Assembly: GCA_016865865.1 (NCBI GenBank)
Contig: VGOC01000004.1
Coordinates: forward strand, 17,388 to 81,387
Origin: Chloroflexota bacterium
GTDB lineage: Bacteria; Chloroflexota; Anaerolineae; Anaerolineales; UBA11858
Length of the DNA stretch: 64,000 bases
Direction: 5' to 3'
How positions within the stretch are numbered: the stretch's first letter is position 1; every line of letters starts with the position of its first letter. Both the position numbers and the translations under genes were made by a program. Below, piece by piece: positions 4,655 to 63,431 of this stretch. The notes under the pieces are model-generated. The model did no database searches. It had not been told where the DNA came from and saw only the letters and a program-made list of their open reading frames with translations.

Positions 4655-4687
4655 ATTTTAGAGCGAGAAGCTGGCAAAAACTATCAG

Positions 4688-4801
4688 GTGTGCGCGCAAA
4701 TGTTGTCAGAAGGGTTCCCGAAAAAAGGGGTGTGGGGCGTGCGGAGCACGCCCCACACCCCTTTTTTCGGGTTATCTCCTGACATGTTTTGCGCGCACAC
4801 A
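4688..4801. mobile_element. MITE-like nested palindrome, family A subfamily, copy A1 (114 bp)
   Basis: Outer arms are GTGTGCGCGCAAA.../...TTTGCGCGCACAC. The core is CCCGAAAAAAGGGGTGTGGGGCGTGC-GGAG-CACGCCCCACACCCCTTTTTTCGGG. It is flanked by the 8 bp direct repeat ACTATCAG (4680-4687 and 4802-4809). Confidence 0.6.
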
Positions 4802-4836
4802 ACTATCAGACTCTGTGAGTTATATTGGACATTTTT

Positions 4837-4867: not shown

Positions 4868-6580
4868 ATGATGACATTAACACGTGAACAATTAGAAGAT
4901 AGGCTGGCCGCGCTGCACCGCGCCAGCCTTCAATTAGTGAGTGATCTATCCCGCAACAACGTATTGGAGCGTATCGTGCGAATCGCCCGCGAACAGGCGA
5001 ACGCACGATATGCTGCCATCGGCATCGTCAATGAAAGCGGCGAGTTGGAGAAATTCATCCCCATCGGCATGGCGGAGGCAGAGATATCGAAAATAGCTCA
5101 TCCTCCCAAAGGGCTGGGGCTGATCGGCGCTCTGCTGAAAGAACAAAAAACACTTCGGGTAGCCGACATAAACAAGGATGACCGCAGAGTAGGCTTCCCA
5201 AAAAATCACCCTAGTATGCGCTCGTTCCTGGGTGTACCGATTGTAACTGGGGGACGGATGTTGGGGCAAATCTACCTGACCGATAAAGAAAATGCCTCCG
5301 AGTTCACCGAAGATGATGAACGGGTCATCGAAACTCTGGCTGCGTACGCCGCCGTAGCGATCGAAAATTCGCGGCTGTACGAAGGCGTCGTCGAACGTGA
5401 TCAGACCCTGATGGAGCAGTTCGACGATCTGACCCTGCTTTACAATCTGGCCAAGTCTTCGGCGCGCGCCTCTGGCATGGATGAAATCCTGGATCAAACT
5501 CTAAACCAGGTAATCAGCCACTTTGGCGTTCAAGCGGGCGAGATATTCCTCCGGGAAGATGATAGCGAAGTGCTATGGCTGAAAATGCACCGCGGCGAGG
5601 CGGCTTCTGCTTTTTGGTCGTGCGAGCGCTTCAATTTTGGGGACGATATTATAGGCCGATGCGCTCAAGAGGATAAAACCATCGAAAGCCCTCCCCTGGA
5701 AAAAGATGTCGTTTGCCTGCGCCCGGCGGTCATCGAGGCGGGCTTCAAACGCATTGTCTGCATCCCTCTGCGCTCCAGCAATAGAGTGGTTGGCGTGATG
5801 ACCGTCGTCAGCCGCGCCGATCGGCAATTCTCCTGGCGCGAACTCGATCTCCTGGAAGCTATCGGCACCTGGACTGGGACAGCCATCGAGAACGCCCGCT
5901 TGCAGCAGCAAAGTCGCCGTGTCGCCATCCTGGAAGAGCGCGAGCGTATTGGCATGGACTTGCATGATGGCATCATCCAGTCTATCTACAGCGTCGGCCT
6001 TGCGCTGGATTTAGCCCGCATGTCGTTGGAAGATGATGTCAAAGTCGCCCGTCAGAAAATCAGCGAAGGCATCGAGGGACTGAACCGCGCTATTCAAGAT
6101 ATCCGGGCCTATATACTCGACCTGCGCCCCCGCCAGTTACACGGGGGCGAATCTTTGCCCCATGGCGTCCAGCGGCTGCTGGATGAATTCCGCAGTCATA
6201 CAAGAGCCAAAACCAATTTAGCCACATCAGAGAACGGTTTCGGTGGGTTGCCCCGCTCGAACGCCCTGGCGCTTTTTCACATCTGCCAGGAATCTCTGGC
6301 CAATGTAGCCAAACATGCCTATGCTGGCGAGGTGGATGTCCAGTTATGGGCTACGGAGGAGCAGGTGCTGCTGAAAGTCAGCGATGACGGCCGCGGCTTC
6401 GATCTGGGAAAGATCGGCCAAATTATCGGACACGGCCTCTCGAATATGCAACGACGAGCCAGAAAAGTAGGAGGCGACCTGAAAATCAACTCGAAAGAAG
6501 GGAACGGGACCACCGTTCTGGCGTGGGTGCCATGGAAAGAAGATAGTGCTGCTTCCGAGGAAGCGAACGAATTCTCCTGA
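4868..6580 (+). CDS. GAF-domain sensor histidine kinase (HisKA_3/NarX-like family)
   Basis: Two GAF-like regions are followed by the H-box ERERIGMDLHDGIIQ and HATPase motifs (QESLANVAKH, DDGRGF, GHGLSNM). The start was moved to the ATG at 4868 because the upstream part of the ORF is the repeat element. Confidence 0.85.
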   Translation: MMTLTREQLEDRLAALHRASLQLVSDLSRNNVLERIVRIAREQANARYAAIGIVNESGELEKFIPIGMAEAEISKIAHPPKGLGLIGALLKEQKTLRVADINKDDRRVGFPKNHPSMRSFLGVPIVTGGRMLGQIYLTDKENASEFTEDDERVIETLAAYAAVAIENSRLYEGVVERDQTLMEQFDDLTLLYNLAKSSARASGMDEILDQTLNQVISHFGVQAGEIFLREDDSEVLWLKMHRGEAASAFWSCERFNFGDDIIGRCAQEDKTIESPPLEKDVVCLRPAVIEAGFKRIVCIPLRSSNRVVGVMTVVSRADRQFSWRELDLLEAIGTWTGTAIENARLQQQSRRVAILEERERIGMDLHDGIIQSIYSVGLALDLARMSLEDDVKVARQKISEGIEGLNRAIQDIRAYILDLRPRQLHGGESLPHGVQRLLDEFRSHTRAKTNLATSENGFGGLPRSNALALFHICQESLANVAKHAYAGEVDVQLWATEEQVLLKVSDDGRGFDLGKIGQIIGHGLSNMQRRARKVGGDLKINSKEGNGTTVLAWVPWKEDSAASEEANEFS

Positions 6581-14571: not shown

Positions 14572-15363
14572 TCAGGCACGCGCCTCCGTCTCGATAGGCA
14601 GGGGCAGCCTTCGAAAAGCAAACGCATCCGGCCGCGCCTGCAAGCGAAGGTCTGCGTAGAAGCGGAAACGGTCGCCGCGCAACTCCGAGTCCACATACTC
14701 GATCACCTGGCCCGAAGCCAGGCGTGTTTCTCGATGGAAGACCAGCACAACGGCTGGCTGATCCAACTCCAACAGGCGGGCGACTTCTGCGGTAGCCAGA
14801 CCAGCCTCGATGACCTGCTCGGCATGATTGGGACTCTTGTTATATTTCCTGGTAAGCACTTCGTAGAGCGAGGCCGTCGAAAAGTCGTATTGCAAGATGC
14901 CCGGACAGAGATCATGCGGCAGATACGAACGTTCGATAGCAGTCGGTTCGCCATCCATCATCCGCACCCGGTACAGGAAAACCACCTCAGCCCCGAGTTG
15001 GATTTGCAGACGCCGCGCCAGAAAAGGATCCGCGCTGATCAGCTTGGCCTCGATCACCCGGCTGGAGACCTGCTTGCCATGAAGCCGCATCTCATGAGTG
15101 AACCCGTAGAGATATTGAGCGGTCTTATCGAAGCGCTCGCCAGAGACGAACGTGCCTACGCCCGGAATGGATTCCAACACACCATCCCTGGCCAGTTCGC
15201 TGAGCGCTCGTCGAACCGTGTTGCGGCCAACCGAATAGATCTGGCAAAGTTCGTGCTCCGAGGGCAGGCGGTCATTGGCTCTGAGCTGACCCTCGTTGAT
15301 CTGCTTGAGGATCGCTGCGGCAACAACCTGATAGAGGGGTTTGGCTTGCTTTTCTTCGACCAT
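14572..15363 (-). CDS. GntR/HutC-family transcriptional regulator (wHTH plus UTRA effector domain)
   Basis: LPSEHELCQIYSVGRNTVRRALSELARDGVL is the HTH, followed by a UTRA-like C-terminus. It is the first gene of the BMC operon. The ATG at 15363 is preferred. An alternative in-frame ATG at 15396 lies inside the inserted repeat element. Confidence 0.85.
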   Translation of the reverse strand: MVEEKQAKPLYQVVAAAILKQINEGQLRANDRLPSEHELCQIYSVGRNTVRRALSELARDGVLESIPGVGTFVSGERFDKTAQYLYGFTHEMRLHGKQVSSRVIEAKLISADPFLARRLQIQLGAEVVFLYRVRMMDGEPTAIERSYLPHDLCPGILQYDFSTASLYEVLTRKYNKSPNHAEQVIEAGLATAEVARLLELDQPAVVLVFHRETRLASGQVIEYVDSELRGDRFRFYADLRLQARPDAFAFRRLPLPIETEARA

Positions 15364-15380
15364 GACTTCTTTCGGTTCTT

Positions 15381-15491
15381 GTAACTGCTCAGCCATCAAA
15401 CGGATTTACCCGAAAAAAGGGTGTGCGCAGGGGGCGTAGCCCCCTGCGCACACCCTTTTTTCGGGAATTTCTCCGATTGGCTGAGTAGTAC
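15381..15491. mobile_element. MITE-like nested palindrome, family A, copy A2 (111 bp)
   Basis: Termini are GTAACTGCTCAGCC...GGCTGAGTAGTAC. The perfect core palindrome is CCCGAAAAAAGGGTGTGCGCAGGGGGCG-TA-GCCCCCTGCGCACACCCTTTTTTCGGG. It is flanked by the 8 bp direct repeat CGGTTCTT (15373-15380 and 15492-15499). Confidence 0.75.
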
Positions 15492-15541
15492 CGGTTCTTA
15501 ATATACTACATGTACCAACTTGTTCCAACAGGTGTGTGATT

Positions 15542-15571
15542 ATTATAGCATTTTTCGACAACTGGAGTCAA
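15542..15571 (-). promoter_or_regulatory. Sigma70-type promoter of the gntR/BMC operon
   Basis: The minus strand reads TTGACT-18 nt-TATAAT with an extended TGc (TGCTATAAT). It lies about 60 nt downstream of the der stop and upstream of gntR. Confidence 0.6.
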
Positions 15572-15634: not shown

Positions 15635-17014
15635 CTACTCTTCCTGACGCCCTCTCAAGAGGATCCGAATGGGGGTGCCGAGAAAGGGGTATGTCTCCCG
15701 GATACGGTTTTCGAGATAGCGCAGATAGGTAAAATGCGCCAACTCCGGATCGTTGACGTGTAGGACGAAGGTGGGCGGGTCGTTGCTCACCTGCGCCCCA
15801 TAGAAGATCTTCAGGGGACGTCCGGCTTTGGATGGCGGGGGGTGTTGAGCGAAGGCATCGCGCAGCAAGCGATTCAGCCTGCCGGTAGAAAGCCGCGCCA
15901 GGCGCTCCTCTTGCACCTGCAAGGCCATGGGGAGAATCTTATGAACTCTCTGCCCGGTTTTGGCGGAGATGAACAACACCGGCACGTAATCCAGAAAGTT
16001 CAACTCGTGGCGGATATGCCAGGTGTAATCCTCGATGGTGTGGGTATCCTTCGGGATGGCATCCCATTTGTTGACCAGGACGACGGCGCTCTTCCAGGCG
16101 TCGAGAATATACCCGGCGATATGGGTATCCTGCGCGGTGATGCCCTGGATTGCATCGAGCATCAACAAGGCCACATCCGAGCGGCGGATAGCCTGCATGG
16201 AGCGCAGCACACTATATTTTTCCACCCCTGGATATATCTTGCCGCGGCGGCGAATCCCAGCGGTATCAATGAGCGTGATCGGCATCTGGTGATACGTCAG
16301 ACGAGTGTCTATGGCGTCGCGCGTGGTCCCGGGGATGGGGCTGACGATGGCGCGTTCTTCTCTGGCCAGGCGATTGAGCAGCGTGGATTTTCCCACATTG
16401 GGCTTGCCGACGATCGAGATTTTAATCGAGTCTTCTTCTTGTTCCCCCACCCAGAGTTCGAAGGCAGCAACCAGGGCATCCAATAAGTCGCCAATGCCTT
16501 GTCCATGAAGGGCCGAGATAGGGTAAGGCTCCCCCATGCCCAATTCGTAGAATTCGTATACCTGATCCCTGCTGGCTTGGCTCTCGCATTTATTCACCAC
16601 CAACAAGATCGGCGGCCAGGGCCGTCCATCCTGTTCGCGCTGCTGCTTCCGTAATATTTGGGCGATCTCCTGGTCAGCTGGGGTAACGCCGCCTTGCACA
16701 TCGGCGACGAATAAGATCGCATCAGCCTCATGGATGGCGATCTCGGCCTGGGCGCGGATCTCCGCGATGAACTCGGCCGAGCCAATCGAAAGGGGGGCTT
16801 GCTTCTTCCCTGGGCTGACCTGGGTTGGATCAATCCCGCCGGTATCCACGATATCGAAGACATACCCGCCCCACTCGGCTTCGGCCATCAAGCGGTCGCG
16901 CGTTGTGCCGGGAATATCGTCTACAACAGCCAGACGCTCGCGGGCCAGACGGTTGAATAGCGTACTTTTACCGACGTTTGGACGTCCTACCAGGGCTACA
17001 ACGGGTTTAGCCAT
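15635..17014 (-). CDS. der: Ribosome-associated GTPase Der (EngA)
   Basis: Two tandem GTPase domains (GRPNVGKSTLFN and GKPNVGKSTLLN) plus a KH-like C-terminus. Confidence 0.95.
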   Translation of the reverse strand: MAKPVVALVGRPNVGKSTLFNRLARERLAVVDDIPGTTRDRLMAEAEWGGYVFDIVDTGGIDPTQVSPGKKQAPLSIGSAEFIAEIRAQAEIAIHEADAILFVADVQGGVTPADQEIAQILRKQQREQDGRPWPPILLVVNKCESQASRDQVYEFYELGMGEPYPISALHGQGIGDLLDALVAAFELWVGEQEEDSIKISIVGKPNVGKSTLLNRLAREERAIVSPIPGTTRDAIDTRLTYHQMPITLIDTAGIRRRGKIYPGVEKYSVLRSMQAIRRSDVALLMLDAIQGITAQDTHIAGYILDAWKSAVVLVNKWDAIPKDTHTIEDYTWHIRHELNFLDYVPVLFISAKTGQRVHKILPMALQVQEERLARLSTGRLNRLLRDAFAQHPPPSKAGRPLKIFYGAQVSNDPPTFVLHVNDPELAHFTYLRYLENRIRETYPFLGTPIRILLRGRQEE

Positions 17015-20278: not shown

Positions 20279-20336
20279 AAGTTCTCCTCAGCACTTGGAA
20301 AGAATCTCCCTGGCCTGGTAATTTTCTTCTAAGATC

Positions 20337-20447
20337 GTAACTGCTCAGCCATCGAACGGATTAGCCCGAAAAAAGGGTGTGCGAAGGGGGCGCAGCCCCC
20401 TTCGCACACCCTTTTTCGGGAACTTCCCCGTTTGGCTGAGTAGTTAC
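20337..20447. mobile_element. MITE-like nested palindrome, family A, copy A3 (111 bp)
   Basis: It has the same termini and architecture as A2. It is flanked by the 8 bp direct repeat CTAAGATC (20329-20336 and 20448-20455). Confidence 0.75.
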
Positions 20448-20502
20448 CTAAGATCACACACATTTTAGTCGGGGCAATACAGAATGTCAAAGGAAGCTTG
20501 TG

Positions 20503-20549
20503 AAAAAAGGGTGTGCGGGGCGCACACGCACCCTGCACACCCTTTTTCC
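20503..20549 (-). terminator. Terminator-like hairpin after oppF (core-only relative of repeat family A)
   Basis: AAAAAAGGGTGTGC...GCACACCCTTTTT. On the minus strand the stem is followed by a T-tract, 30 nt after the stop codon at 20580. Confidence 0.55.
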
Positions 20550-47636: not shown

Positions 47637-47656
47637 ACCTTCCTCCAAAAGTGATG

Positions 47657-47768
47657 GTAACTACTCAGCCATACGGAGAAATTCCCGAAAAAAGGGTGTG
47701 AGCAGGGGGCGTAGCCCCCTGCTCACACCCTTTTTTCGGGTAAATCCGTTCGATGGCTGAGCTGTTAC
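47657..47768. mobile_element. MITE-like nested palindrome, family A, copy A4 (112 bp, inverted relative to A2/A3)
   Basis: GTAACTACTCAGCC...core...GGCTGAGCTGTTAC. No clean 8 bp flanking duplication is visible for this copy. Confidence 0.65.
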
Positions 47769-63388: not shown

Positions 63389-63431
63389 AAAATAGGGGTG
63401 TGAGGCGCTCTGCGCCACACACCCCTATTTT
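63389..63431 (-). terminator. Terminator hairpin after dnaN
   Basis: The minus strand reads AAAATAGGGGTGTGTGGCGC-ag-AGCGCCTCACACCCCTATTTTT. The stem is followed by a T-run, 19 nt after the dnaN stop. Confidence 0.6.

Follow-up and report, generated by a model that had tools for sequence, protein, structure and literature searches.

The sequence upstream of gntR in the window (the whole stretch of 64,000 nucleotides that was analyzed) is best explained, in our judgment with moderate confidence, by the insertion of a MITE that is abundant in Anaerolineales into the 5' leader of the gntR-rpiB-deoC-BMC operon, where it would likely attenuate expression of the operon in part. The element has the terminal repeats, target-site duplication and dispersed copies of a mobile element, it is missing from the orthologous site of three relatives, and its central hairpin has the form of an intrinsic terminator on either strand.

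Structure of the element in the gntR leader

The element, copy 1 of a family designated family A, occupies positions 15381 to 15491 of the window. It is palindromic and 111 bp long, with terminal repeats at 15381 to 15395 and 15478 to 15491, and is flanked by an 8-bp target-site duplication that reads CGGTTCTT on the plus strand and AAGAACCG in the sense of the gene. The gene-side copy of the duplication (15373 to 15380) is 100% identical to the promoter-side copy (15492 to 15499). A preliminary description, made without database searches, had proposed both the 111-bp palindrome and its perfect duplication, and repeat finding confirmed the two. It had also placed the element 17 nt upstream of the gntR ATG at 15363, which agrees with the sequence: the ATG is preceded by the gene-side AAGAACCG (15380 to 15373) and by nine bases, AAAGAAGTC, that together make up the 17 nt.

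The center of the element is a hairpin core (15409 to 15465) whose inverted-repeat arms, 15409 to 15435 and 15439 to 15465, are 27 nt long, 100% complementary and separated by a 3-nt loop. The 27 bp comprise CCC/GGG, the A6/T6 runs and a 17-bp G+C-rich stem. The core had been described as a perfect hairpin of about 26 bp flanked by A/T runs; its perfect pairing was borne out, and its length and the flanking position of the runs were corrected, as the arms are 27 bp long with the A6/T6 runs included. When the element and its duplications were folded as RNA, the predicted energy was -82.3 kcal/mol (z = -12.25), and 0 of 200 shuffled sequences folded as well. The right-hand terminal repeat of this copy is one base short, with GTAGTAC in place of the GTAGTTAC found in other copies. 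Apart from a chance in-frame ATG that is treated below, the 111 bp contain no ORF of their own and are noncoding.

The element lies between a conserved promoter and a microcompartment operon

The nearest protein relatives of the genes in the window are labeled as Chloroflexota or Anaerolineae MAGs. The gene next to the element, gntR (14572 to 15363, minus strand), encodes a protein of 263 aa with GntR HTH and UTRA domains and heads an SPU-type BMC operon. The gene upstream of it on the same strand is der (EngA GTPase; 15635 to 17014, minus strand), which has its stop at 15635. According to the Pfam matches, the gene order after the element is gntR, rpiB, deoC, two BMC-P genes, an aldehyde dehydrogenase gene, a BMC-H gene, a EutJ-like gene and two further BMC-P genes, with rpiB starting 5 nt past the end of gntR. 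The assignment to the SPU type is based on the presence, again by Pfam, of the GntR/UTRA regulator, an RpiB-type RPI, a DeoC aldolase, an acylating aldehyde dehydrogenase and both BMC-H and BMC-P shell genes. A characterized sugar-phosphate-utilizing BMC locus in Chloroflexi bacterium GWB2_54_36 has the same order with the GntR/UTRA regulator first (PMC11585597), and the window operon matches it in both respects.

The promoter of this operon is upstream of the element. Its -35 hexamer, TTGACT (15566 to 15571, minus strand), and its extended -10 element, TGCTATAAT (15542 to 15550, minus strand), are invariant in four species, and transcription is predicted to start at about 15535. The promoter scan gave TTGACT-18-TATAAT with its TG (15571 to 15542, minus strand) a score of 11 out of 12. 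The earlier claim that a good promoter precedes the element thus held on both its score and its conservation across species. A weaker second promoter-like site, TTGGAA-17-TATATT (15500 to 15528, minus strand; 9 out of 12), ends right at the insertion site, and its block TAGTATATTAAGAA is conserved in the relatives L037 and L039. On the gene strand, the scan revealed no promoter-like site past the hairpin, and none directed outward was found within the element either by scan or by eye.

The gntR locus was compared to those of three relatives, L037, L039 and L038, whose GntR proteins are 92%, 84% and 84% identical to that of the window, respectively. When the element and one copy of the repeat were removed in silico, the window aligned colinearly with all three. 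The TTGACTC, TGCTATAAT and GGAACA repeats were invariant in the window and the three relatives; the rest of the intergenic region had diverged, and the relatives have the promoter in the form TTGACT-N17/18-TGCTATAAT. Both L037 and L039 have a single AAGAAT(T/C)(C/G) site and no element, with a TATTAAGAAT(T/C)(C/G) block followed by the ATG, and L038 has a shorter leader that contains neither the AAGAA block nor the element. The preliminary description had suggested such an empty-site comparison with related genomes and had expected that removal of the element would restore a plausible leader; the in silico removal yielded the leader of the MITE-free relatives. Since the element is absent from the gntR site in all three relatives, the insertion occurred in the lineage of the window, and since the conserved promoter is upstream of the element, the SPU-type BMC operon carries it in its 5' leader.

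GT(A/T)GGAACA boxes directly follow the -10 element and have been kept in four species. In the window, these operator-like repeats read TGTTGGAACAAGTTGGTACATGTAG (15506 to 15530, minus strand), and the columns GGAACA..GT..GG(A/T)ACA..GT are invariant in the window, L037, L039 and L038. The site consists of two direct boxes approximately 10 to 11 nt apart, and a short palindrome comes after them (TACATGTA in the window and AACATGTT in L039). Judging from its sequence, it is probably an operator for autoregulation by the GntR/HutC protein, a putative assignment.

Another insertion and a possible one were noted in the spacer between der and gntR. In L039, a sequence related to the element is found at 2810 to 2892; it shares the right arm, GTAAATCCGTTCCGTGGCCGAGCAGTTA, but its hairpin differs in sequence and its left end has decayed. 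This relative is located 22 nt upstream of the -35 hexamer of the orthologous gntR promoter and represents an independent hit, so this spacer has been struck more than once. In L037, two small genes on the opposite strand (183 aa and 79 aa, no Pfam hit) are present at 1679 to 2466, between der and the gntR promoter, and are missing from the window. This pair could be an inserted cassette, perhaps a toxin-antitoxin pair.

Family A is a dispersed MITE family with 8-bp target-site duplications

Five matches to the core pattern were found in the window, compared to 0 expected, and the terminal repeat GTAACTNCTCAGCCA was matched six times, compared to 0.21 expected, at both ends of all three copies. 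Copy 2 (20337 to 20447) is located between the conserved coaE promoter and coaE and has a perfect duplication, CTAAGATC, at 20329 to 20336 and 20448 to 20455. Copy 3 (47657 to 47768) is in the opposite orientation and has no recognizable duplication. It starts 57 nt past the stop of a C39-like peptidase/TPR gene, and its end is approximately 10 nt before the GGAGGA ribosome-binding site of a gene for a 72-aa zinc-ribbon protein (PF09723), in the interval 47640 to 47656.

In a scan of species-representative genomes, the core was present at 36 or more loci. These are Anaerolineales MAGs, and most of the loci come from three MAGs, one of them from 750 m in the Black Sea. For the 21 copies with recognizable ends, the duplications at the default boundary matched at 8 of 8 positions in five copies and at 7 of 8 in four. 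Perfect 8-bp duplications are found at window copies 1 and 2 and at L011, L016, L017, L018 and L021, those of copy 1 and L017 being perfect only after a one-base offset for their damaged right ends; the 7-of-8 matches are those of L002, L004, L008 and L035. Among 16 canonical cores, we counted 13 compensated pair changes, distributed over 11 copies, and five mismatches in three copies. The compensated changes in the arms indicate that the palindrome is maintained, either by structural selection or by a copying or repair mechanism. In the metagenomes, approximately 150 to 210 Logan contigs per run touch the element, and the summed word depth over the element is approximately 1,300 to 1,600 times the flank depth and steady across samples, a ratio that is not a copy number.

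At 111 bp, family A is thus shorter than the limit of about 300 bp that applies to MITEs; it is noncoding, and it has terminal inverted repeats, a duplication of fixed length, dispersed copies and an empty orthologous site, which are the features by which MITEs are recognized. The earlier designation of the element as a MITE with a target-site duplication is supported by the terminal repeats, the 8-bp duplication and the three copies in the window. Family A appears to be an undescribed, new family of a well-known kind; no Chloroflexi or Anaerolineae MITEs of this type turned up in our literature search. No matching family was found in Rfam, where the hits to miRNA and sRNA models were below threshold and at the level of chance. 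A search of the window and of loci L001 to L036 revealed no autonomous IS that shares the ends of family A, and the pairs of its terminal repeats spaced by up to 3.5 kb in this set did not bound a credible longer element. We presume that the parent of family A could be an IS of the IS66 family, with which it would have the 8-bp target duplication and ends beginning with GTAA in common, and we take an IS66-type transposase to be the lead for a parent IS bounded by GTAACTNCTCAGCC.

In several copies, the duplication is directly preceded by a TATAAT-like hexamer. Targeting of promoter -10 and transcription start regions by the family was considered and rejected: TATAAT-like hexamers within 16 nt were directed toward the element in 11 cases versus away from it in 8, which is not a significant difference, and a preference for AT-rich targets explains it well enough. 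In L021, positions 5449 to 5498 contain a 50-bp miniature of family A that has both terminal repeats and the linkers and lacks the hairpin core; the 8-bp duplication around it, CTTCATCT, is perfect. Either transposition does not require the hairpin, or this copy lost it once inserted.

Terminator form and predicted effect on expression

We examined the element for the form of an intrinsic terminator, which the preliminary description had attributed to it in both orientations. The RNA in the sense of gntR contains A6 and then GGGUGUGCGCAGGGGGC-UAC-GCCCCCUGCGCACACCC-UUUUUU, and the 17-bp G+C-rich stem, 3-nt loop and U6 have a predicted energy of -41.0 kcal/mol on either strand, in agreement with that view. 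The U6 tract past the stem in the gntR sense (15413 to 15418, minus strand) is the predicted point of termination. A standard terminator scan misses the hairpin due to the position of the T-run inside the 27-bp arms, and a separate hairpin scan finds it. The stem, at 17 bp, is longer than those of typical bacterial terminators.

A comparable hairpin occurs after the stop of oppF (window 20497 to 20549). It is like the MITE core (GAAAAAGGGTGTGC...GCACACCCTTTTTTC) and lacks the MITE ends. The hairpin is present at the orthologous site in four species (the window, L045, L046 and L048), where both arms have changed and most of the base pairs are nonetheless retained. This retention suggests that selection acts on such hairpins in this clade, and termination would be their simplest function. 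The oppF hairpin could have given rise to the MITE core, or it may be an ancient, domesticated relic.

The mechanism that we propose for gntR is as follows. The element entered the 8-bp site AAGAACCG and duplicated it on insertion, approximately 36 nt downstream of the predicted start of the conserved sigma-70-type promoter, just past the repeats resembling a GntR operator and 17 nt before the start codon. Transcripts from this promoter, together with any read-through from der, would have to cross the 17-bp G+C-rich stem and its U6, and part of them would probably terminate near 15413 to 15418. Any mRNA that read through would carry a perfect 27-bp duplex in its leader, which may be a substrate for RNase III. 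The gntR gene is the first of the operon and is probably autorepressed, and feedback should restore the basal levels of GntR; the net effect would therefore be mainly a lower induced maximum of the operon. A role of the element as a partial attenuator is plausible but unproven.

How much transcription such a hairpin may allow is indicated by copy 2. The coaE promoter, TTGACA-17-TAAAAT (20463 to 20491, minus strand), is invariant in four species, and copy 2 is inserted 6 nt past its -10 element, at about +1 to +8, in the oppF-coaE spacer ahead of coaE-dacA-ybbR. The coaE leaders of L045, L046 and L048 have no element, and a single site is recognizable in L045 and L046 (GATCTGAC and GATTTTAT). 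A promoter scan of the spacer revealed no alternative coaE promoter. The coaE gene is normally indispensable. With copy 2 ahead of this presumably essential gene, the hairpin must allow substantial read-through, or transcription must restart at a point that was not seen. By analogy, a complete stop at the gntR hairpin is unlikely.

The same sister copy is one of the points in favor of a second, possible reading that we consider rather unlikely, namely, that the MITE is a neutral passenger in the gntR leader, with a hairpin that neither terminates transcription nor destabilizes the mRNA to a meaningful extent, and that expression is as in the relatives. A copy in the 5' leader of a presumably essential operon is consistent with it, as are three other findings. 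First, the copies are not depleted from divergent, promoter-bearing spacers. A crude ORF context placed 20 of the 36 copies between tandem genes, 6 between divergent genes, 3 between convergent genes, 6 at contig edges and 1 inside an ORF; the context caller is rough, and it miscalled the window's own copy. In these contexts, there was no enrichment of copies at the 3' ends of genes, which a strongly polar terminator would predict. Second, the operon ORFs downstream of the element are all intact, with full-length Pfam domain matches. Third, fold prediction gave the native ribosome-binding site and ATG the same accessibility whether or not the element was present. Against neutrality, the stem and U6 have the canonical form of a terminator with an A-tract upstream, and the very similar native hairpin kept after oppF in four species suggests an action on transcription.

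The similarity of hairpin cores in different settings raises a further possibility, which is tentative and to which we assign a low probability: the core may be a module derived from host terminators that rides on several unrelated MITE backbones and serves as a portable, leaky attenuator in 5' leaders. If this were true, the cores ahead of the BMC and coaE operons would imply a general mechanism of read-through or processing in these Anaerolineae, such as antitermination or trimming by RNase III, which would make insertions in leaders tunable and not lethal. A second MITE family, family B, is represented at window positions 4687 to 4797 and has a perfect 9-bp duplication, AACTATCAG, at 4678 to 4686 and 4798 to 4806. 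It is situated in the divergent spacer between the genes for HMG-CoA reductase and a GAF histidine kinase. Its terminal repeats, GTGTGCGCGCAAATGTTGTCAG..., differ from those of family A and its hairpin core, CCCGAAAAAAGGGGTGTGGGGCGTGC..., is very similar; such a core on a different backbone suggests that the hairpin is modular. In addition, window positions 63393 to 63427 contain a hairpin of this style that consists of the core alone (AAAATAGGGGTGTGAGGCGC...GCCACACACCCCTATTTT); it has a single mismatch, and terminal repeats are not recognizable around it.

It is very unlikely that the element is a domesticated insulator, kept to stop read-through from der, with the gntR transcript starting inside or after it. 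In favor of such a role, the two genes are on the same strand and, apart from the element, the stretch from the der stop (15635) to gntR contains no terminator-like hairpin. However, the conserved promoter and operator are upstream of the element and not downstream, neither scanning nor reading of the last 60 nt of the element and the next 17 nt revealed a promoter-like site, and the relatives function without the element. Still more improbable is a knock-down on the way to loss, in which the insertion has silenced gntR and the BMC operon and the locus is decaying in this lineage: a strong predicted terminator does precede the whole operon, gntR and rpiB are only 5 nt apart and no internal promoter was found, but every ORF of the operon is intact and matches its domains over their full length, eight samples have this same allele, and survival with such an insertion is demonstrated by the coaE copy.

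The window and its relatives form a natural pair with and without the element, in which promoter, operator and leader are the same and a terminator-shaped MITE is present here and absent there. Such a pair lends itself to a test of the effect of a mobile hairpin on an autoregulated microcompartment operon, and of the ability of Chloroflexi to terminate transcription at intrinsic terminators of this form.

Presence of the insertion in lake metagenomes

The window stretch is present in eight lake-water metagenomes at 86 to 100% of the sampled words. In all eight, Logan contigs that enter the element from the two flanks match it over 30 nt with 0 mismatches. The contigs break inside the hairpin and leave its center unspanned, as a high-copy repeat would lead one to expect. 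Across the whole element, the JGI metagenome contig L043 agrees with the window at every position. These Logan and JGI data may include the window's own source and are corroboration that is possibly not independent. No contig that skips the element, as an empty allele would, was found in the eight metagenomes, and the protein collection contained no MITE-free 263-aa GntR at 100% identity. The insertion appears to be fixed in the lake population and absent from the nearest relatives found. The chance that an assembler misplaced a repeat at gntR is negligible: the unspanned center of the hairpin would allow it, but both flanks reach 30 nt into the element without mismatch in eight runs, the JGI contig spans the element identically, and the perfect 8-bp duplication fits the rule for the family.

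Comparison of family A to known mobile hairpins

The pneumococcal SPRITE is a small interspersed repeat that forms an 18-bp stem and a U-rich tract in its transcript and has been proposed to be a mobile terminator; it is AT-rich, has only AAAA/TTTT ends and no demonstrable duplication, and is enriched at the 3' ends of genes (PMC3049150). Transcripts of family A likewise contain a long stem (17 bp and G+C rich, versus 18 bp) followed by a U tract. Unlike SPRITE, family A has terminal repeats of 14 to 15 nt, 8-bp duplications and a symmetric terminator form on both strands, and it occurs in 5' leaders and divergent spacers. We rejected its classification as a SPRITE-like, co-opted terminator repeat, for which enrichment 3' of coding sequences or in convergent spacers would be expected; the tandem, divergent and convergent counts were 20, 6 and 3.

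Correia elements (CREE/nemis) of Neisseria are MITEs of approximately 100 to 150 bp that form a long hairpin when cotranscribed, insert near promoters and into leaders, and alter the fate of mRNA through cleavage by RNase III (PMC10969869). Family A is like them in MITE size, in its hairpin and in its placement at promoters and leaders, and has no sequence similarity to them. Correia elements duplicate TA, have IHF sites and outward promoters, and are not known to have a core made of a G+C stem and a U-tract. By analogy, family A may work like SPRITE or Correia-type elements, and it is a member of neither group, as its ends, duplication length and sequence differ.

REP/BIME sequences, which are associated with RAYT transposases, are high-copy, intergenic, G+C-rich palindromes that have been proposed to act as terminators or mRNA stabilizers (PMC3733652, PMC2817692). 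REP sequences are 20 to 40 bp long, carry a GTAG/CGTC tag and lack terminal inverted repeats and duplications, whereas family A has both and starts with GTAAC. Membership in the REP/RAYT group was rejected on the basis of the 111-bp length, GTAAC ends and 8-bp duplications of family A. Apart from its position in a leader, copy 1 is an ordinary MITE insertion; the analysis adds the empty sites at two loci and the promoter-proximal placement.

The element affects the annotated start of GntR

The terminal repeat nearest to gntR supplies an in-frame ATG (15394 to 15396, minus strand; MAEQLQEPKEV-), which the preliminary description had considered as a possible extension of GntR. Public gene calls use this ATG at 15396 and give a protein, P0001, of 274 aa (window 14572 to 15396) to which 11 MITE-encoded residues have been added. 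Several results make it an unlikely start. Most of the listed GntR homologues are 258 to 263 aa long: among 119 listed homologues other than P0001, 58 are of 259 aa, 14 are of 263 aa and 104 do not exceed 269 aa. The ATG at 15396 has no Shine-Dalgarno sequence, and the outer stem covers part of it: the A, T and G are predicted to be unpaired with probabilities of 0.72, 0.09 and 0.01, respectively. The GntR domain begins 8 residues past the ATG at 15363. The real start of GntR is thus probably 15363, and the 274-aa call is probably a systematic misannotation caused by the element. For annotation, the consequences of family A are that gene callers lengthen GntR by 11 element-encoded residues and that assemblies break at its repeats.
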